Shown here: one piece after another, positions 1-12,251 of the stretch
Position numbering within the stretch: position 1 is the first letter of the stretch
Layout: each line of letters starts with the position of its first letter
Source: Chloroflexota bacterium
GTDB taxonomy: Bacteria; Chloroflexota; Limnocylindria; Limnocylindrales; CSP1-4
Length of the DNA: 64,000 nt
Direction of reading: 5' to 3'
Assembly: GCA_040389445.1 (NCBI GenBank)
Contig: JAZJZX010000004.1
Span: 36,696-100,695 of the forward strand
The notes under the pieces: model-generated
What the model saw: only the letters and a program-made list of their open reading frames with translations
Told to the model about the DNA's origin: nothing
The model's database searches: none
Program-made: the position numbers and the translations under genes

Positions 1-804
1 CGCGACGCCACCGCCACCGAAGTCCTCGAACACAACGAAGTGGCGGACGAGATCGAGAAATCGGCGCTTCTCGAACACGCCTTCGAGTACGACCTGAAGC
101 TCACTCAGCGACGCCGGCGCGTCACCGTGCCCTGCGATCGTCCGCCACGGCTTGAACCACTCGCGGCCCGCGCCGATGACGCCAATCCGCGCTTGCGTCC
201 CGTCTGAGGCGACGAGTGCCGCGTTGTACGCGAAGAGCGTTGGGATCTGCGCCTGGTACGTCTCGAGTTGGTGGAACGCCGACCAGATCGTCGTGTTCTC
301 GTCGGCCGGATTCTTCAACTCGATGACCGCCAGTGGCAGGCCATTCAGGAAGACGATGACGTCCGGCCGGCGCGTGTGCTGGCCCTCGGCCAGGGTGAAC
401 TGGTTGACCGCAAGCCAGTCGTTGTTCTCCGGGTCGTCGAAGTCGATCACTCGCGCCTGCGCCCCTGCGATCGAGCCGTCCGGTCGGCGGTACTCCACGG
501 TCACGCCGTCGACGAGCATCCGGTGGAGTGCGTGGTTGCGATCGAGGAGCGTCGGGGCATCGGTCCGGGTCAGCTTCCGGTATACGTCGTCGAGCGCTTC
601 TGGCGGGATTGCGGGGGTGAGGCGTGAGAGCGCCTGGCGGAGCCGGCGCTCCAGGACGACATCGCGGTATCCGGGGTCGGTGCGCTCGGCAGCGGGTTCG
701 CCGAAGGCAATATCCGGCCCATGGAGGACCACGTACCCAAGCTCACCGAGCCATGCCAGGGCAGCATCCTCGACTACCGATTCGGTGAACCCAGCGCCGG
801 TCAC
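1..804 (-). CDS. hsdR: Type I restriction enzyme R subunit (HsdR), N-terminal part. The gene continues beyond the window start.
   Basis: The minus-strand translation from the GTG at 804 reads [29 protein letters not shown]...[19 protein letters not shown]...[32 protein letters not shown]...[10 protein letters not shown]. This is the conserved HsdR N-terminal nuclease/DNA-binding region (compare EcoR124I 'ILVNGLPLVQIELKK'). The frame is open to position 1, and the GTG start overlaps the upstream gene's stop (GTGA). Confidence 0.85.
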
Positions 805-2963: not shown

Positions 2964-4799
2964 TCATCGCCGCAGAACTCTCACCCGGACCGGTCCCCGC
3001 TCCTCGAACCGCCCTACGAAGTCCGAGTCATCGGCGATGAATCCCCCCAGGTCGTAAACGAGGAACAGGGCGCTTCGCCCCCGATCCGCGTACTTCGGGA
3101 TGTCGGCGAGCATCTCATCAGTCACTTTCCGCACGTCCGACTTCATGCGAACGAGCTTCGCCTCGACGAACAGGTCCGGCTCGTCGGCGGCGTCCCCCTG
3201 CGTCGATCCGCTGAAGTCTGGTCTCGTTCCGACCTGGCCGAAGCTGACGGTCGGGAACTCGCGGTCGAGGTTCATCTTCGCTGCGGTCTGAGCGACGTCG
3301 ATCTGCCTCTGGAGCTCGTCCTCGTTGGATGGCTGGTGGCCAGCGAAGCCTTTCCGGATGGCCGGCGTCACGACCTCGGCGATCCGGTCAGCGAGTCGTT
3401 CCCACGGCTCTCGGCGGTGCTCAAGCTCGCCAATCCTTCTGAGAAGGCCCCCCGTCGGCAGCTTGCCACGTACATAGTCGGGGTGGTTTCGCGTCCAGAC
3501 GGCCTGGTACGCCCCATCGATTTGCTCCGCGTGGCGCTGGACAAGCGCGTAGATCCTTGTGATCTCGTCATTCACATTGCCGGCGACTTGGGCGGCCCGC
3601 CACACGTCCTGCTCCCGCGCGAGATCATCCGGGGTCATGTCGAGCGTGGTCCACGCGAAGCGCAGGTACTGCTCCGCATACATGGCCGGCTCGCCATCTT
3701 TCAACGGGTCCCGAAACAAGTCCACCTGATGCTGCGGACGCTCGATGTCGTCATCCCACCCCGCCGCGATGCCGGCAAAGCGACGGTCGACGCACTGCGA
3801 GCAGGTGCCACAGTGGGGCTGGATCGGCCGCCGGAACATGCCACGCGCGCATGAGACCGTGCGGTGAGCCAAGGCTTCCCCGCCCCGAGTGATGGCTTCC
3901 CTAATCACGTCGGCCTTGGTGCTGTCGGCAAAGGGCGTTTCGACGGTGACCTCGATACCGAGGGCAACGAGGAGCTGGCGATAGAGCCAGAGCGTCTTGG
4001 GGTGCGTCGTCCGCGAGCGCATGGCTCCGACCGACTGGGCCGACTGGGCGAGGTTCAGGCTTGTCACCCCATTTTCCGGCACGATCAACCGATTCAGCCC
4101 GGCCTGCATCGCCACGGCGACGCCAAGGCCGAGGTAGAGCACGCCTCTCGACCGCTGGGTGTAGTCCTGGGCATCGCCCGCTCCGGGACCCCGGACGGTC
4201 TGGAGCGTGGGATTCGGAAAACGCCAGCCCGCCTTCGTCGTTCTGAGAACTTCGAGCACTCCATCCTTGAAGCTCCGGCCCGTGTTCGTCGTCCAGTGGC
4301 TCGCGAGGATCGGCCGTTCGCCGTCGTCGACGAGACGAAGCGCGCCAGCGAGCGAGTCAAGGCCGCCCGAGAAGAGCGAGACGCACGTTGGATCATCGCC
4401 GCCGGCCGCAACAAGATCGAGCTTGAGTTGCTCGTCGGCCTGGCCCCGGCGGAATTCGAATGTCCAGGAGTCGTCTGTCGCGAACTCGAGCACTGCCGTC
4501 AACTCGTCGCGGACCGCGTTCCACCGGTCTGGCTCGTGAACGGGCACGTGCAGCGCGAGCTCCCGGCGCCAGTTCTTGGCGAGCGGATCCCGCTTCCGCG
4601 CCCGCGGCACAGCTCCGTCTGCGAGGAAAACGTAGGCGGCGACAGTCAACAGGTCCCGGACCAGGGGCAGGAGTGTCCTCGCGGCGGACTTCTCGACGCC
4701 GGTGACGTTGAGCACGACCTGGCGGTTTGGCGGTGATGGATCGAGCGTCACGGAGGCGCCCGACACGGTAGGCGGTGGTCCGCAGTGGATGACCGTCAT
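2964..4799 (-). CDS. QueC-like PP-loop ATPase (7-cyano-7-deazaguanine-synthase-like fold) with a unique N-terminal extension and a C-terminal PD-(D/E)xK restriction-endonuclease-like domain. Candidate defense effector or modifier.
   Basis: 611 aa. It has the PP-loop VSLFSGGLDSLAGA (SGGxDS) and a QueC-type zinc site C-x12-C-x2-C-x2-C (SCARGMFRRPIQPHCGTCSQCVDRR). The C-terminus carries ...TRPDFSGS...DEPDLFVEAKLVR, giving a PD...EAK nuclease motif. Its ATG overlaps the stop of the upstream 254-aa gene (ATGA). Confidence 0.6.
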   Translation of the reverse strand: MTVIHCGPPPTVSGASVTLDPSPPNRQVVLNVTGVEKSAARTLLPLVRDLLTVAAYVFLADGAVPRARKRDPLAKNWRRELALHVPVHEPDRWNAVRDELTAVLEFATDDSWTFEFRRGQADEQLKLDLVAAGGDDPTCVSLFSGGLDSLAGALRLVDDGERPILASHWTTNTGRSFKDGVLEVLRTTKAGWRFPNPTLQTVRGPGAGDAQDYTQRSRGVLYLGLGVAVAMQAGLNRLIVPENGVTSLNLAQSAQSVGAMRSRTTHPKTLWLYRQLLVALGIEVTVETPFADSTKADVIREAITRGGEALAHRTVSCARGMFRRPIQPHCGTCSQCVDRRFAGIAAGWDDDIERPQHQVDLFRDPLKDGEPAMYAEQYLRFAWTTLDMTPDDLAREQDVWRAAQVAGNVNDEITRIYALVQRHAEQIDGAYQAVWTRNHPDYVRGKLPTGGLLRRIGELEHRREPWERLADRIAEVVTPAIRKGFAGHQPSNEDELQRQIDVAQTAAKMNLDREFPTVSFGQVGTRPDFSGSTQGDAADEPDLFVEAKLVRMKSDVRKVTDEMLADIPKYADRGRSALFLVYDLGGFIADDSDFVGRFEERGPVRVRVLRR

Positions 4800-5560
4800 G
4801 AGGCGCGCGTGATCTCGTCCGCGATCTTCCGCATCGCCACCGCGGCCACGCCTTCAGTCCGATCCAGGCCACCGAGCCATTGACGCTTCGAGTACCAGGC
4901 GCCGGCGAAGTCCTCGACGATTCGAGCCGCCTCGGATGCGTAGCGATCGACGCCATCGGTGAACAACTGAATCTCTGCCTCGGATCGGAGCCGTCCGTCG
5001 CCCCCGAGGAGATTGGCGGCCTCGTGGTCGGTGAAATACCGGAGCGAGCGGGAGAGGAGCCGGGCAAAGAACAGGTGGGCGAGCTGCGCGAAGCCTCGCT
5101 CGGTTGAGAACGAGTGGTAAGCCTGCCGCGCATCGTCCAGCCCGGAGAGGAAGAGGCTGCCGGTCTGCGACGTGATGGTCCGGGTCAGCGACTCCTGGAG
5201 AGCGCCGAGAGCGAACTCCGTGAAGATCGTTCGCTGACTCGTCGGTCCGAACCGGTTCTCGGCCTCGCGCAGGACGTTCCCGAGAAGACCCAGGGCATCT
5301 TCGTTGCCCGTCACGGTGAAGCCGTAGCCGCGCAGGGCTTCGGCGAAGTCATCGCGACGTGACGCATCGGCCAGGAGCGCCATCACCCGGAGGCTCTCCA
5401 CGACGCCTGGGTCTTCGCCAGCCGCACGATAAGCCTTCTCGGCTGCGCCAACGACAGCGCGCGCTACGGTTCCGACGTCCACGTCAGGATCGTCCATGAG
5501 CCGGACGACGTGCGACCAGCGTCGCGTCTTAGGGAGCTCGCCGAGGCGAATGTGCCCCAT
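4796..5560 (-). CDS. Hypothetical all-alpha protein of ~254 aa, translationally coupled between hsdS and the QueC-like gene. Possible QatB-like partner or substrate.
   Basis: The ORF has protein-like composition. Its ATG at 5560 shares one base with the hsdS stop (TGATG), and its stop overlaps the QueC-like ATG (ATGA). No recognisable catalytic motif. After removal of the initiator Met the N-terminus is M-G-H... Confidence 0.5.
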   Translation of the reverse strand: MGHIRLGELPKTRRWSHVVRLMDDPDVDVGTVARAVVGAAEKAYRAAGEDPGVVESLRVMALLADASRRDDFAEALRGYGFTVTGNEDALGLLGNVLREAENRFGPTSQRTIFTEFALGALQESLTRTITSQTGSLFLSGLDDARQAYHSFSTERGFAQLAHLFFARLLSRSLRYFTDHEAANLLGGDGRLRSEAEIQLFTDGVDRYASEAARIVEDFAGAWYSKRQWLGGLDRTEGVAAVAMRKIADEITRAS

Positions 5561-6896
5561 CAACCGACCCCGTGGCTTTCGCGCCGCGACCCGAGTGTGC
5601 GCACGGAGCGTTCCTCTTGACTTCGGGAGATGTGCAGTACGCCCGAGATCAGGTCTGGTAGCAGCGCGTCGCGCAGGGCGGCGAGAGTTCGGGATTGCGC
5701 AGTCATCATCGACGCCTGTTCGAGAAGACGGTGGACCACGGTTCCAAAGAGCCGGGCAACTTCGGACGACGGGGACACGGCGAGGAAATAGGACAGGGAC
5801 TCTGCTGGCACCCGCTGTCGACCGCTGGAGCCCGTCATGCTCTGGATCGCGAACTCCCGAAACTCATCGCTACGCGCCAAGCAGTAGGCGTACTCGGTCG
5901 GAAGCGGGGGCTCTGCGCGGAGGACGATGTACTCGGTTGAGCCCCAGCCAACCTGGCCAGGCTCGAGGAAGTCAACGTATGCAGTCTTGCCGTTCTCGAG
6001 ACACGGCGTGATCCGGGCGACCAACGTATCCCCGTTCTGGAAACGCATTCCCGAACCGAAGGGGCGATCAACCACAGCGTCTGGCGAGTGGCCGCGAGTC
6101 GGCATGTTGGCCATGTCCAGGTATGGCGCGACAACGCCCTTGCGCAATGAGCGCGGCGGGTTGACCTTCACGACCGCAGGCAGCGGCGCCAATCGCCAGC
6201 CCGTCGGGATCTCCCCAAGCTCCGAGTCCTCGAAGGAACCCGGGAACAAATCGGCGAGGTGGGGTGGGAGGCCGGGGTCGCGGCCTTCGGACTTGGCGCG
6301 GACGGGGTCGAAGTCGACGAACCAGGACTTGAAGAGGGCCCGCGCGATCGCCTCGAGGGCCTCGCTCATCCGGCGGTTCAGCTCGATCTTGTCGTCCAGC
6401 GTGCCGAGGATGTGGGCGATGCGGCGCTGCACCCTATCAGGCGGTAATCCGAACCGGAAGCCAAGTAGCCGTTCCTTCGACAGGTTCATGATCGCCGTGC
6501 CTACTGCGTACGCTTCGATGCGCTCACGGAAGTCGGCCGATTGCAGGACGTAGCCGAGGTATGCCGGGTCAATCCGGTCAGGTTTTGGCCGGATTGCGGC
6601 ACAGAATGCTCCGACGCACCCGTCCCACGTTTGGCGCAATGGGGCGAGACGACCAACAGCCTTGCGGCTACCACTCGACATCGCAATCACGACGTCGAAA
6701 CGGCGCAAGTGCTGTGCTTCTCGGACGAGACGCGTCGGGACGTAGATGACATTGGCGAGATCCAGAGTGTGATCCCCGATGTTCGTGGCGCGCAGCAGTG
6801 GTACCGCGCCCGTGGACTCAGTTGCGAGCTCGCTGGGACGGAAGTTGACGCCACGCACAAGATCGGCAACTTCGCCGAGCTGAACCTCACCCTCAG
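5560..6896 (-). CDS. hsdS: Type I restriction-modification specificity subunit (HsdS).
   Basis: The sequence [24 protein letters not shown]...[16 protein letters not shown]...[26 protein letters not shown]... shows two target-recognition domains plus conserved HsdS repeats. The likely GTG start at 6896 overlaps the hsdM stop (GTGA). The ORF track's longer 542-aa version has a low-complexity N-terminus that overlaps hsdM and is probably not translated. Confidence 0.85.
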
Positions 6897-8443
6897 TCAC
6901 CGAAGCCGAGCTCCCGCAGGTTCGCATCGATGAGCGCGTCGAGCCGCTGGCCCTCGGCGACCTGTTCGCGTAAGGTCGCGCCAAGCCTCGCCATCTTCTC
7001 GTCGAACGGCTCGGCGTCCTCCTCGGTGGCGGCAGCGCCGACGTAGCGGCCGGGGGTAAGCACGTGACCGTGCTTGCGGATCTCGTCGAGCGGGACGGAC
7101 CGGCAGAAGCCGGGCACGTCGGCGTACTCGCCGGCGCCCTCGTCGCCGCGCCAGGCGTGGTAGGTACCGGCGATCGTCGCCACGTCATCGTCGGTCAGTT
7201 CGCGGTGCGTTCGATCGACGAGCGAGCCCATCTTCCGGGCGTCGATGAAGAGCGTCTCGCCGCGGCGGTCGCGGAAGCGGCCGTTGCGCCGGTCGCGGGC
7301 GAGGAACCAGAGGCAGACCGGGATCTGGGTCGAGTAGAAGAGCTGGCCCGGCAGGGCGACCATGCAGTCGACGAGGTCAGCCTCGATGATCGCCTTGCGG
7401 ATCTCGCCCTCGCCCGACTGGTTGGTCGACATCGAGCCGTTGGCGAGGACGAAGCCGGCGATTCCGGTCGGCGCGAGATGGTGGATGAAGTGCTGGACCC
7501 AGGCGAAGTTCGCGTTGCCCGCCGGCGGCTCGCCGTACACCCAGCGCTTGTCGCCCTTCAGGAGTTCGCCCCGCCAGTCGCTGTCGTTGAAGGGCGGATT
7601 GGCCAGGACCCAGTCGGCCTTGAGGTCCGGGTGGCGGTCGTTGTGGAAGGTGTCGCCGTGGGCGATCTGGGCGTCGATGCCGCGGATCGCGAGGTTCATC
7701 GCGGCCAGCCGCCAGGTCGTGTAGTTGGACTCCTGGCCGTAGATGCTGATGTCGCCGAGCTTGCCCGCGTGGGCCTCGATGAACTTCTCGCTGCTCACGA
7801 ACATCCCACCCGAGCCGCAGCACGGGTCATACACGCGGCCCTTGTAGGGCGCCAGCATCTCGACGAGGATCCGGACGACGTGCGACGGCGTGTAGAACTG
7901 GCCGCCCTTCTTGCCCTCGGCGCTCGCGAACTGGGCGAGGAAGTACTCATAGACCCGACCGAGCGTGTCCTTCGCCCGGTCGGCGGGGGCTCCCAGCGCG
8001 ATGTCGGAGACGAGGTTGATGAGCTGGCCGAGGCGCGCCTTGTCGAGGCCGGGCCGGGCGTAGTCCTTGGGCAGCACGCCCTTGAGGGTCGGGTTGTCCC
8101 GCTCGATGGCGGCCATCGCGTCGTCGACGAGGGTGCCGATCGTGGGCTGGGGAGCGCTCGCCTTCAGGTGCGTCCAGCGGGCTTCCCTGGGGACCCAGAA
8201 GATGCTGACGGCCCGGTACTCGTCGGGGTCCTCGGGGTCGGCGCCAGCGGCGCGGTCGGCCTCGAGTTCGGCGTGCTTCGCCTCGAAGGCGTCGCTGATG
8301 TACTTCAGGAAGATCAGGCCCAGGACGACGTGCTTGTACTCGGCCGCGTCCATGTTGTTGCGCAGGGCGTCGGCGGTCTGCCAGAGGCGCGCCTCGAAGC
8401 TAACGGGAGCGGCGGTGTCCGGGCGGCCGGAGCCCCTTGCCAT
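6893..8443 (-). CDS. hsdM: Type I restriction-modification N6-adenine DNA methyltransferase (HsdM).
   Basis: 516 aa. The N-terminus reads [39 protein letters not shown], it carries the NPPFN catalytic motif, and it has a SAM-binding fold. Its ATG shares one base with the upstream DUF262 gene's stop (TGATG). Confidence 0.95.
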
Positions 8444-10728
8444 CAGATCCCCCCTCCAGCGACATCCGCAGGCCCCGCGTACCCCACAGCCACGAGCCGC
8501 TGCCTGGCCCGGTGGAGCGCCTCCTCGGAGAACAGGCCCTGAAACTCGGGACGAAGCGCCTGCGCTTCAACGGACAGGTCGAGGCGACCCTTTGACCAGA
8601 GTGCGACGAACCCCTCAGATGGGTCCGTGGCCTGTAGGAGTCGCTTGGCCGTTTCGAGACCTCCAATATCGGAGACCATCGACAGGAACCGCGACGCGTT
8701 GTATCCCGCCTCGCGCTTGGCTCGGTCGTGAACCTCGAGCATCGCCTGGTGGAAACGTTCAGCGGCAGCGGTTGAAGGCTCCGGCGCGACCTCCTCGGCT
8801 GAGGCAAGCTCCGGCGGCGCCATGAGGTAGCGCTTGAACGCGTCGGGCGTGGTGAAGACTCGGTATCCCAAGGCCGCGAGTCGACTGACTGCGGCGTCCT
8901 CGGCCTCGAACTCGAAAACGACTGGGTCGCTCAGACCCTCCTGGACTCCGTTCGGCCAGACGAGATCACCTACGATAATCAGCTCCTGAGTCTCGGGATC
9001 CGCGATCTCCTGGTCCACGTTGGGTTGAGAAATACCTTGTTGCCCAATCCAGGCCAGCAGCTCCGTCACGACTGGGTCCATCGCCTCCGCGACGTCTGGG
9101 GCGGCGCCAAGCTCCAGCTCGAGCGCTGTGTCGACGGGTGCGCCGGCCGCAGGATGGAGGAGATTCTCGAGCACGTGATTCGCTGCATCCGCCAGAAGGG
9201 CGCGCCTCGCCGCCAAAAAGTCCCGATACCGATCCACTTCCCACAACTGCTCGTCCATCGGGATCCACTGTGACTCGAGAGCCCCGGGATAGTCTGTGGC
9301 GATCTTCCGGAAGTAGTCGCGCGGCGCGCTGTCACTGATCGCGATGTTCGTGTCCTTCGTCAGGAAGCAGAAATTGGCGAGCGCGTTCACTTCGGATCGC
9401 TGGTAGTCGTGGCGATACAGGTGGGCCTTCGGGAAGATGTGGTGGATCTCGAGGGCTGCCCCCTTTCCGAGCATTCCGGCGGACAGGACTGGAAATGGTG
9501 CGCCCCAATCCCGTGCCCCTTGCATCCGCGTGAGGAGATACAGCATCGGGTAGAAGCGAGCGCCAAGGCTCCAGCCGGAGAAGTCAACGTCCCGAACGGT
9601 TAGGTCACCTCGCGAGAGCCGGATCTGTTGGATCAGGCGATCGATCGACGCCTCCGTACCATCGACGAGGTCCAGGTCCTGGTTCAATACCGTCTCAACA
9701 GAGCCGGCAAATCGGCCCCACAGGAAGCTCTGGATGTACCAGTACAGCAGCTTGTCCTGCTCGATCGCGCTGTGGAACTTGCCTCCGCGTGTCGACAAGT
9801 ACCGAGTCATCACCGGGAACGCGTACCGCCCACCAAGGACGCGGTCATGGTCCAGTCCAAGACGCGCGCCAATGACGTTCAGCAAGACATTCGCGGATTT
9901 CGTCGCGTTCTTGAGACCCTCCTGGAATTCCGATGTGGTCACTCCAGTAAGGGCGGCGAACTTCGCTTCACCGGCTACGATCGTGGTGATGTTGCGGAGA
10001 AGCCAGTCGAGCTGGAAGTGGAAGCCACGGTCCGACCAGTACCGGAGGACCTTCTTCATCTCGTCGCGTGCGTCGGGCCACGACGCGCAGATCCGGGCGA
10101 GGGCGAGATCACCTTTCGAGAGCTTGGTGCCCCCACTGTTCACTCGATTGAAGATGTCGACAACCACCTCGATCGTCTTGTCCTCACCGACGACCTTCTC
10201 GACGTGGAACTCAATGTCTTTGACAGCGTCAAGCCGCGTCAGCCGATTGACGTAGTCCCCGGCGCGCAAGCTCAGGTCCGGGTTTTCGAAGACAGCCTTG
10301 ATCGACTCGGCGACCCCCTCCGTCATCAGCTGCGTGACGCTGATCCAGCGGGGGTTGCCCTTCATCTTTGCCGGCGCGTAGAACTCGAAGACCTCGTCCT
10401 CGATGTCGAAATGCAAGCCGGTGAAGGCGCTGGCGTCGCCGTCGAAGAACCGCGGGGCACGGCCGCGGATGATTCCGTACAGGGTCGTGACGCGTTGCTG
10501 GCCATCAAGCAGAAGGTCAACAGTGCCGGCGGCAAGCATCCCGCCACCTCGCACGTCAGCCACCTCGGTCGGCGTCACCCAGACCATGAGACTTCCGACC
10601 GGATACTTCCGGTAGAGGGACGTCATGAGCCCCCGAACCTGGTCGCGGTTCCAGACGTAGCCACGCTGGAACTCGGGCAGGGCGATGGATCCAAGGTCGA
10701 TCTGGCTCAGGATGGTCCGGACGTCCAT
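8443..10728 (-). CDS. GmrSD-family Type IV restriction enzyme-like protein (DUF262 ParB-like NTPase domain plus DUF1524 HNH/His-Me nuclease domain).
   Basis: The N-terminal motif is [16 protein letters not shown] (the DUF262 QR-x-x-W motif) and the C-terminal motif is [13 protein letters not shown] (DUF1524/HNH-like). The likely start is ATG at 10728, with AAAGGA 5 nt upstream; the ORF track extends to 10890 through an unconvincing N-terminus. The gene is translationally coupled to hsdM. Confidence 0.8.
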
Positions 10729-10807
10729 GCGTATCCTTTCTGCAATGTCACGTAGGGTACGGCGCGTCGTGCCGGACACACGGATTGTCCTGACGAAGCG
10801 TCGATCG

Positions 10808-11776
10808 TCATTCGCGGACGTCTCCGTCTCGTCTTCGGTCGAATAGGATTTCGTAATCGCGCTCGGTCCAAAGCTCACCCCATCGATCACCTGTCTCGAT
10901 CGGCGCGATGTCGTTGCCGATCAGTCGCTCAACGTCGCCGCCGTAACTAGAGATGTTGTAGAGGCGAGTCTGTACGCGGAGCATCGCGCGCAGGCCATCC
11001 GTGACGATCGGCAATCGCCGATCGAGGTCGACCGCAAGAAACTCGACCGGCAGGATGTGACCGAACCGCTCATTGAAACGCCGGGGGGCGTCCATCGCGT
11101 ATTGGTATGAGCCCGTTACGCGAAAGACTGATAGTCGGCCCCACTCTGGCAGGTTCGGAGCCACGACAACGTCACCGAGCCGCATTCCGTCGTGTGCCGA
11201 TGTTCGCATCCGCCGCGACCGCCACGTCATCCGCTGCTCGTCGCTGAGCTCGCCTCCACGACGGACCACCTCGGCGACCACGTCGAGGTTCATCTCGGGG
11301 TTCCAGCCCCAGCCCTGGCGAAGGCGTCCGCGTTGGGCCTCGGCCCAAATGTAGGGCCGCTCCCAGGGGCTAGTTCGCATCACCCAGTACCCGCGACCTG
11401 CGAGCCCCGGAGTTCCCATTGGCCTCGCGCTGACGGGCGCGCGGGAGCCCGCTCGGGGCGCCGATTTCGGGCGCCCGAGTGCTGCGAGAGCACCGTCGAC
11501 GTCCCCAGCGAGATGCGATGGGAGCTCCTCCCGGTCGACCGTTCCAAATACACCGAGGACCGCATTACGAGTAGCGGGATTGCGCCCTATTCGCTCGAGC
11601 ACACGGATCGCGAACGCTGCAAGTCGCTCGTCGCCGAGCCAATCAGTCATCGCATCGATAGCCATCTCGCCGTGTGCAGCGATCGCATCACGAAGCTCGA
11701 TCCGCGCCATCGAGTCAGCCTCTCGGGCACTCGCGAGCAGGTCGTCCAGTGCTGCTGTGGTCATCGGTAGCCGCAT
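10808..11776 (-). CDS. Hypothetical 322-aa protein first in the defense array: a helical N-terminal half, a low-complexity linker, then a YW-rich C-terminal domain that could be a PUA/EVE-like modified-base reader.
   Basis: Complete ORF with varied amino-acid composition (W/Y/F rich: GYWVMRTSPWERPYIWAEAQRGRLRQGWGWNPEM...). It lies 80 bp upstream of the GmrSD-like gene on the same strand. The fold assignment is speculative. Confidence 0.4.
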   Translation of the reverse strand: MRLPMTTAALDDLLASAREADSMARIELRDAIAAHGEMAIDAMTDWLGDERLAAFAIRVLERIGRNPATRNAVLGVFGTVDREELPSHLAGDVDGALAALGRPKSAPRAGSRAPVSARPMGTPGLAGRGYWVMRTSPWERPYIWAEAQRGRLRQGWGWNPEMNLDVVAEVVRRGGELSDEQRMTWRSRRMRTSAHDGMRLGDVVVAPNLPEWGRLSVFRVTGSYQYAMDAPRRFNERFGHILPVEFLAVDLDRRLPIVTDGLRAMLRVQTRLYNISSYGGDVERLIGNDIAPIETGDRWGELWTERDYEILFDRRRDGDVRE

Positions 11777-12251
11777 AGTGAACGCGCCCCGGACTCCCGC
11801 CGTCTGGTCGCCGAGGACATTGCGTGTTCCTGGTGCACTGGGGCCATCACGCTGGAATCATCCCGACGGGCCGTGCCATCTCTGGTGTCACATCGAGCAC
11901 GATGTCCCGCGCGGCGACCTTCTCATCGTGTCGAAGTCGAAACAGCAGCGTGCGCAGCGCCTCCAGCGCCTCGGCCGGCGTCGAGACGTCGATGACCTCC
12001 GGCGCTCGACCACGAGCCGCTCGGCCCTCGCGCCGGCGCGCTCATCAAGCGATTCCACCACCGGGGCGTCAGCCATCAATCCCAACCCTCCCCTCGTCGG
12101 GTTCGGTGCCACGCGCGCGCTCCCGGGGAGTGTAGCGGGGCGGGGTGGCGCGATGCTGGCCTCGTGGAGCAAGGCCTCGCCAGGTCCGGGTTACTCGAAC
12201 GGTGCCACGGACGTTCCTGGACGCGCCCAGCGTCTGCGGGGCCGCAACCCG

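Follow-up and report, generated by a model that had tools for sequence, protein, structure and literature searches.

A row of defence genes occupies the left end of the 64,000-nucleotide (nt) stretch of Chloroflexota DNA analysed here (assembly GCA_040389445.1, contig JAZJZX010000004.1, positions 36,696 to 100,695; referred to below as the window and numbered from its first letter). From position 1 to ~12,000, the window is a single row of genes on the minus strand, on which all the window features described below lie, with a G+C content of 0.64–0.67 that gives way to 0.70 or more to the right. Two genes at the head of the row are the main subject of this analysis. The first (10808..11776) encodes a protein of 322 amino acids (aa), p322, with a predicted reader domain; the second (8443..10728), beyond a 79-nt spacer (10729..10807), encodes a predicted type IV restriction enzyme of the GmrSD/BrxU family, extended at its C-terminus by a domain that we call X. 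NCBI annotates the latter as a DUF262 protein, and we refer to it as GmrSD::X. In the direction of transcription there follow hsdM, hsdS, the p255 gene, a QatC-like gene, the p360 gene, an AbiEii-like gene and the part of hsdR encoding its N-terminus. The GmrSD gene stands first in a composite operon of type I restriction genes that also contains embedded genes and whose hsdR lies at the window edge. We propose, with a probability of about 0.55, that p322 and GmrSD::X together make up a split restriction module of type IV (modification-dependent) at the head of this operon, in which the reader acts in trans.

A model of p322 obtained with AlphaFold 2 (AF2) from a 70-sequence alignment had a predicted local distance difference test score (pLDDT) of 89.5 and a predicted template modelling score (pTM) of 0.82. 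The helical N-terminal half is a HEAT repeat (HEAT/ARM-like helical repeat domain, residues 1–100; 11477..11776). A linker of low confidence (residues 101–128) leads to an alpha/beta domain (residues 129–290; 10907..11392) that, as modelled, has the beta-barrel with flanking helices of the PUA-like fold and matches PUA-like readers of the EVE/YTH type. The best Foldseek matches in the PDB were YTH domains, and these were weak (E 0.078). As judged from the model, the C-terminal domain is kin to EVE and YTH at the level of the fold and is not a member of those sequence families; the whole protein gave no match in Pfam, NCBIfam, PHROGs or PDB sequences, and matched only the PADLOC model PDC-S02, weakly (E 1.5e-4, residues 194–293). 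The initial annotation, which had remarked on a helical N-terminal half and an aromatic C-terminal region and had guessed at a PUA/EVE-like fold, was right at the superfamily level: the helical half is the HEAT repeat, and the aromatic region holds tryptophan and tyrosine residues that are invariant in the family.

At E <= 1e-3 the family counts 203 homologues, and the best of those that are not identical to p322 reaches E 1.7e-147. None of them has a Pfam domain or a name, and almost all come from metagenome-assembled genomes (MAGs) of the Chloroflexota/Limnocylindria type. Y130, W131, W144, W156, Y224, H240 and a GRLRQGWGW loop are invariant; p322 of the window keeps every one of these residues in a gene free of frameshifts, and it is therefore probably functional. 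It is shorter than the homologues of 365–385 aa, which carry a C-tail of ~55 aa, and tail-less natural forms of 285–300 aa exist. We considered and rejected a frameshifted tail. In tblastn searches of the homologues' tails against the whole window, similarity stopped at ...DYEILF (10835) and no trace was found elsewhere, so the tail has been deleted rather than frameshifted. The tail of the homologues, with its regularly spaced tryptophans, was at one point considered to be a Myb/SANT-like motif, an idea that was dropped when no Pfam match was found, and a phage origin or an anti-defence role of p322 was set aside as no relatives were present in IMG/VR. In four loci (L015, L017, L019 and L027), all in MAGs from one project with 'MFD' isolate names, two or three frames are needed to read the reader gene, which is split there; this could reflect real gene decay or sequencing indel errors.

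The open reading frame (ORF) of the large protein, 8443–10890, reads as 815 aa from a GTG, and the initial annotation had left the choice between this length and ~761 aa open. The shorter form stands. An AAAGGA ribosome-binding site lies at 10739–10734, within the spacer and six bases upstream of the ATG at 10728; NCBI annotates a 761-aa protein of exactly this sequence (P0275); X-bearing homologues are mostly 755–761 aa long; and the DNA-level match with the orthologous locus L037 begins exactly at 10727. On these grounds the true product is the 761-aa protein, and the 815-aa reading is an in-frame extension to an upstream GTG, which overlaps the 3' end of the gene for p322.

This product is a BrxU/HEC-05-like enzyme of the GmrSD/BrxU family. 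Its N-terminal part contains the ParB-like NTPase domain DUF262 (GmrSD_N, PF03235; E 2.2e-26 and 93.7 bits, with the cut-off at 33.2; 10090..10719, residues 58–267 of the 815-aa reading) with a DGQQR motif. The PADLOC model HEC-05 aligns over positions 113–593 of its 600 (E 1.8e-43), and BrxU itself (PDB 7p9k, chain 7p9k_A) matches with E 5.4e-10. HEC-05 has been equated with BrxU (bioRxiv 10.1101/2024.01.29.577857). The putative His-Me-finger nuclease region, DUF1524 (GmrSD_C, PF07510; 9196..9450), scores weakly in Pfam (E 0.025 and 14.9 bits, below the cut-off at 23), so its assignment rests mainly on the motif EIHHIFP...N...N, with EIHHIFP at the expected place, and on the coverage of the HEC-05 model. 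Both motifs named in the initial annotation are thus present in the translation, and its observation that the stop of this gene shares a base with the hsdM start was also accurate: in ...GGG ATC TGATG GCA..., TGA and ATG have the A at 8443 in common. The same TGATG overlap recurs in L033, with 74% identity in the C-terminal part and 91% in HsdM.

The protein had further been described as longer than typical GmrSD enzymes, and the comparison with its relatives agrees. Members of the family are very numerous, with 6,879 proteins at E <= 1e-3. Most of the 120 best clusters hold proteins of 640–660 aa that cover 83% of the query, while ~22 of them, with proteins of 755–830 aa and identities down to 49%, cover 98–99%. 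The shared part ends with a small alpha/beta 'middle' domain (8809..9048, containing ...GYRVFT), which is common to the 640–660-aa relatives that lack X and at which P0126 and P0127 stop; its low-confidence model is beta-beta-beta-alpha-beta-alpha. The extra length is accounted for by X, an all-helical C-terminal domain of ~95 aa (8479..8766) that is carried by a sub-clade and matches no known family.

Six orthologous loci with X-bearing GmrSD genes have readable flanks, and in three of these a reader gene is adjacent, each time in a different arrangement. In the window the reader precedes GmrSD::X. In L037 a 67%-identical reader, p382, is followed by p198, by GmrSD::X (~72%) and then by an unrelated HsdM (35%). 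In L035 the order is reversed, and a gene for a 42%-identical HEAT-reader protein lies 20 nt after GmrSD::X (69%). Where X is not fused to GmrSD, it lies directly after a HEAT-reader gene in four of the four readable loci: as a free-standing gene in L001, L012 and L031, and in L043 as the N-terminal part of a 489-aa X::VRR-NUC::HEAT protein, whose VRR-NUC-like region has a D...ESK motif and whose second HEAT module is homologous to that of p322. X is attached to two unrelated nucleases, GmrSD and VRR-NUC-like, and tracks the reader; the simplest reading, accordingly, is that X and the HEAT domain would serve to couple reader and nuclease.

Some further observations on X-bearing loci may be recorded. 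A GIY-YIG nuclease gene follows the 489-aa gene in L043 (L043:1851-4362). More distant X-bearing GmrSD genes (~51–63% identical; L038, L039 and the contig of P0286) lie beside an Eco57I/MmeI-type methyltransferase, an SNF2-helicase and UvrD, with no type I system. The C-terminal helical domain of HsdR is the part that contacts HsdM. Its 'L..yGY' ending is shared with X, and X was accordingly considered as a copy of that domain; hhalign gave this a probability of 0.4% over 9 columns, and the idea was rejected.

The distribution of the reader domain in other proteins provides a second line of evidence. A profile of the C-terminal domain of p322, searched against 1.84 billion representative proteins, retrieved 576 clusters at E <= 1e-3. 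The fusion counts that follow all refer to the 104 members listed with a length of 250 aa or more. In 51 of these the reader domain is immediately followed by Mrr_cat, usually in proteins of 330–360 aa; P0221 is such a reader-Mrr_cat fusion. p322 itself has no Mrr_cat match and ends after the reader domain. The other fusions were to GmrSD_N (two), GmrSD_C (two), HNH (one) and HNH_2 (one), and only single members carry HTH_17, MerR or sigma-70 domains. In P0143 (1,063 aa), GmrSD_N and GmrSD_C are followed by an intervening region that reads as putatively HARE-HTH-like and then by the reader domain; P0138 and P0141 are similar GmrSD-reader fusions. 'Rare fusions' of EVE with GmrSD homologues have been noted before (Bell et al., 2020; PMC7641849). 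Many members of the set are also recognised by the PADLOC models for PDC-S02 (25, 19, 9 and 5 for the four best models), and one example, on a plasmid of Nitrosococcus halophilus, bears the annotation 'restriction endonuclease'. Through these fusions the reader domain is linked with nucleases of the modification-dependent kind, GmrSD among them, and they supply the defence linkage on which the initial annotation had made its proposal depend. One family member, P0073 (546 aa), has a weak fusion to the UDG superfamily (E 0.0032).

The initial annotation had also asked whether homologues of p322 are linked in their genomes to DUF262/DUF1524 genes. Such genes do adjoin homologues in L014, L020, L021, L035 and L037; in L014 the reader protein has a different N-terminal part and the GmrSD gene follows directly. 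More generally, the cargo beside HEAT-reader homologues is variable, yet nearly always concerned with defence or DNA enzymology. It includes UvrD-PDDEXK followed by BREX genes (L028); TIR, NERD-helicase, a 199-aa weak VRR-NUC protein and SNF2 (L029/L030); X, p178, a DUF4011 helicase and HsdMSR (L031); X and then PLD-ResIII-DUF3427 (L012); RecQ-like helicases (L005, L007 and L010); an OGG-like glycosylase (L009:11828-12727, E 1.9e-39) together with ResIII (L009); and a PARG-like macro domain (L004:11219-12223, E 5.6e-14). Together with the UDG fusion of P0073, the OGG-like and PARG-like neighbours bring enzymes of the base-excision type into or beside members of the reader family. In the window and in L031, L037, L042 and L059, homologues head loci that contain restriction–modification (RM) genes of type I, whose HsdM subunits belong to unrelated families.

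Comparison of the window with L037 bears on the history of this copy. At the DNA level, 10993–10840 of the window align at 71% with the reader gene of L037, in its 3' part, and 10727–10610 align at 85% with the L037 GmrSD gene, at its 5' end. Where L037 has 1,022 nt between these matches, the window has 112 nt (10728–10839), and the missing stretch comprises the reader C-tail of ~55 aa, the p198 VRR-NUC-like gene and the spacer. As far as can be read from these alignments, the window copy would be a trimmed version of a larger, L037-like cassette from which ~1 kb has been lost.

How the two proteins might work together can be outlined as follows. With its conserved putative aromatic pocket, the reader would bind a modified base carried by nucleic acid that enters the cell, in all likelihood DNA, and would be coupled in trans to the nuclease through its own HEAT domain and the X domain of the nuclease. 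This coupling would give or widen the target specificity of the GmrSD enzyme, which would then cleave using NTP hydrolysis. Type I systems attack unmodified DNA; together with the type I system of the operon, the module might thus extend protection to unmodified and modified invaders alike, as BrxU has been described to do beside BREX. The analysis shows the fold of p322 and its genomic linkage; the physical partnership with the nuclease and the modification that is targeted are inferred from there being a reader fold and a neighbouring nuclease only in the sense of a proposal.

Several observations weigh against a partnership. Residues 126–322 of p322 match no Pfam family at E <= 10, EVE and YTH included. 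No reader lies near the X-bearing GmrSD genes of L036, L038 and L039, and most HEAT-reader homologues have neither GmrSD nor X beside them (L002–L011 and L028–L030). In L042, a 62%-identical reader gene precedes an hsdM that is 93% identical to the one in the window, and no GmrSD gene separates the two. In L021 the neighbour of the GmrSD gene is a reader-Mrr-type protein, with a weak Mrr_cat match, and that adjacency may be one of two independent enzymes. The p322 of the window may itself be a remnant, having lost its C-tail and its VRR-NUC-like companion. BrxU, moreover, is known to work alone (bioRxiv 10.1101/2024.01.29.577857). The adjacency of reader and GmrSD could, as L042 illustrates, reflect a shared insertion hot-spot, and L042, the lone homologues and the lone action of BrxU fit such a hot-spot at least as well as they fit a functional complex. 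Our confidence in the partnership is held at the level given above because of these same three observations.

A rival explanation is that the two genes are neighbours and not partners: p322 would derive from a separate cassette of HEAT-reader, X and VRR-NUC-like genes, common at a defence-island hot-spot in Limnocylindria-type Chloroflexota, and would lie beside an independently acting GmrSD enzyme, the ~1-kb deletion having left an orphan and possibly inert reader. The deletion is seen directly in the comparison with L037; the reader recurs together with p199/p178 proteins, which match VRR_NUC weakly (E 0.0021 and 0.047), in L029/L030, L031, L037 and L043; the cargo downstream of the homologues is highly variable; and, besides the same hsdM behind a GmrSD-less homologue in L042, the GmrSD::X genes of L036, L038 and L039 do without a reader and BrxU-type enzymes are known to act alone. 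We nevertheless consider this explanation possible rather than likely. X, the constant companion of the reader, is fused to this very sub-clade of GmrSD, and the reader domain is itself fused to GmrSD in P0138, P0141 and P0143. Reader and GmrSD::X are adjacent in three loci that differ in gene order and are divergent in sequence, and p322 in the window has kept its invariant residues and its reading frame.

The split, reader-in-trans module can be extended to a more general proposal, which we put forward only tentatively. HEAT and X may together be a docking system that plugs one nuclease-free PUA-like reader onto interchangeable effectors. The effectors would be GmrSD::X in the window, X::VRR-NUC::HEAT in L043 and, elsewhere, VRR-NUC-like, PLD-helicase and UvrD-PDDEXK proteins with a free X. 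If this were true, it would define a modular, multi-subunit class of modification-dependent restriction systems in the Chloroflexota, assembled from two kinds of protein module, X and the HEAT-reader architecture, neither of which corresponds to a family in the libraries searched.

It is improbable, in our view, that p322 is instead a sensor or regulator. In that case its YTH-like domain would read N6-methyladenine (m6A), which HsdM produces, whether in DNA of the host, in incoming DNA or in RNA, and would control the expression or licensing of the downstream restriction genes. The closest structural matches do include m6A-reading YTH domains, homologues do head type I RM loci whose HsdM families are unrelated (the window, L031, L037, L042 and L059), and many homologues carry the extra C-tail, to which no role has been assigned. 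That tail, however, has no Pfam match and is absent from p322 of the window; about half of the longer relatives are fused to nucleases and not to DNA-binding regulators; many homologues have no RM system nearby; and at this level structure cannot tell an m6A pocket from one for 5-methylcytosine or 5-hydroxymethylcytosine. It is highly improbable that the PUA-like fold serves some other role, such as protein or small-molecule binding, with its place in a defence island incidental: PUA-like folds do bind diverse ligands, no sequence match to EVE, YTH, ASCH or SRA models was found and the Foldseek E-values are weak (best 0.078), but the tryptophan and tyrosine residues are invariant and the fusion to restriction nucleases is systematic.

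The remainder of the operon holds the type I genes for HsdM, HsdS and HsdR in one locus, with the motor and nuclease parts of HsdR beyond the window. hsdM (6893..8443) encodes a type I N6-adenine DNA methyltransferase (N6_Mtase E 6.9e-106; HsdM_N E 5.2e-26). hsdS (5560..6900; PADLOC Specificity_I E 3e-112) encodes the specificity subunit and probably starts at a GTG at 6900; the PADLOC match begins at residue 101 of a longer ORF. The 5' part of hsdR (1..804; Pfam HSDR_N E 4.2e-46) is cut by the window edge. Between hsdS and hsdR are embedded the genes for p255 (255 aa; 4796-5563), which has no family match; for a QatC-like protein of 611 aa (2964-4799; NCBIfam QatC E 6.9e-62, 209.6 bits against a cut-off of 280); for p360 (360 aa; 1679-2761), with a weak helix-turn-helix match; and for an AbiEii-like nucleotidyltransferase of 291 aa (801-1676; weak match, AbiEii E 1e-3). 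The QatC-like protein is QueC-like, with an SGGxDS motif, and has a weak DpnII/MboI-type restriction endonuclease match at its C-terminus. A Qat system is not present among the operon neighbours, in which Pfam and PADLOC scans recognised none of QatA, QatB and QatD. The p360 and AbiEii-like genes, directly before hsdR, resemble an AbiE-type toxin–antitoxin pair embedded in a type I operon. No published description was found of the embedded combination of p255, a QatC-like gene and an AbiE-like pair.

The methylase module appears to recombine independently of the genes that precede it, since hsdM copies 91–93% identical to that of the window stand behind different upstream genes in L033 and L042. 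Third-position G+C is 0.94 in hsdM, 0.77 in the GmrSD gene and 0.70 in the p322 gene. Synteny does not extend along the row: no counterparts of HsdM, the QatC-like protein, p255, p360 or the AbiEii-like protein were found next to 27 genome homologues of p322. Just right of p322, around window position 12,000, G+C climbs from 0.64 to 0.70–0.73, which is consistent with horizontal acquisition of the defence row as an island, its right border being near 11.8–12.2 kb; tRNA genes were sought in the window and none was found. Promoter and terminator scans around p322 gave nothing, and the spacer to the GmrSD gene holds no terminator-like site. Upstream of p322, at window 11846-12172, a 94-aa ORF ends at 11888 and a second frame continues with a plausible C-terminus of a protein, LEALRTLLFRLRHDEKVAARDIVLDVTPEMARPVGMIPA before a stop, ending at 11846. 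The pair may be a frameshifted small gene, to judge from the reading frames, and no counterpart of it was present upstream of the homologues examined.

A type IV restriction enzyme with a PUA-like reader is a known theme, as is a GmrSD gene attached to a type I system. What is new here is the split design, together with the HEAT-reader family and X; apart from a weak match of the reader domain to PADLOC PDC-S02, Pfam, NCBIfam and PHROGs hold no match for them. To our knowledge, no reader domain can be recognised in GmrSD/BrxU enzymes. If the partnership is real, a sub-clade that carries a docking-type X beside a nuclease-free reader would have found a route to target specificity in trans, and the family could become a source of modification readers whose specificity can be reassigned. 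The analysis also gives a fold and a likely role to a family that had no annotation, with its 203 full-length homologues and 576 reader-domain clusters, and to a small orphan domain, X. If the partnership is false, what remains is a composite defence island of the ordinary sort, and the gain is one of better annotation only.

Among the nearest relatives in known systems is BrxU/HEC-05 (PDB 7p9k), which has the combination of DUF262 and DUF1524, with DGQQR and (D/E)HxxP-type motifs, that GmrSD::X is predicted to share. The two are also alike in their placement within another restriction system, BrxU in BREX and the GmrSD-like gene in type I RM. They differ in that the window enzyme has 761 aa, as compared with 587 aa, with additional alpha/beta and helical X domains that are not described for BrxU; in that its gene lies upstream of hsdM and not between the genes of the system; and in that a separate reader gene is adjacent. 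GmrSD-like genes are frequent guests embedded in type I RM systems, and the embedded-gene arrangement has been described for type I systems, BREX and Hma (bioRxiv 10.1101/2024.01.29.577857). The operon of the window has the same one-strand order of hsdM, hsdS, guests and hsdR, together with a GmrSD-like gene, as the type I systems with embedded defence genes, of which PrrC/EcoprrI is an example ('guilt by embedding', bioRxiv 10.1101/2024.01.29.577857). Here, however, GmrSD::X and the reader precede hsdM and do not lie inside the operon.

Enzymes that combine reader and nuclease differ from the window pair in another way. In VcaM4I (EVE-HNH; PDB 6yex) and in the EVE-GmrSD fusions (PMC7641849), the two parts are joined, whereas in the window they are separate polypeptides, and p322 bears a HEAT-repeat domain in place of a nuclease and has no Pfam match to EVE or YTH. 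PADLOC PDC-S02, a single-gene candidate with a reader and an Mrr-like nuclease, has a reader domain homologous to that of p322, but p322 lacks the Mrr-like nuclease half, has an N-terminal HEAT domain and is not a member of that single-gene type. In the placement of recognition and cleavage on different polypeptides, the proposed module resembles McrBC, with its reader-GTPase McrB and its nuclease McrC, and YTH/EVE-like readers are used by some McrB proteins, including archaeal YTH-McrB (PMC7641849). In contrast to McrBC, the window system has neither an AAA+ GTPase nor a McrC-type nuclease; the parts of motor and nuclease would be played by GmrSD, with its ParB-like NTPase and its His-Me finger.

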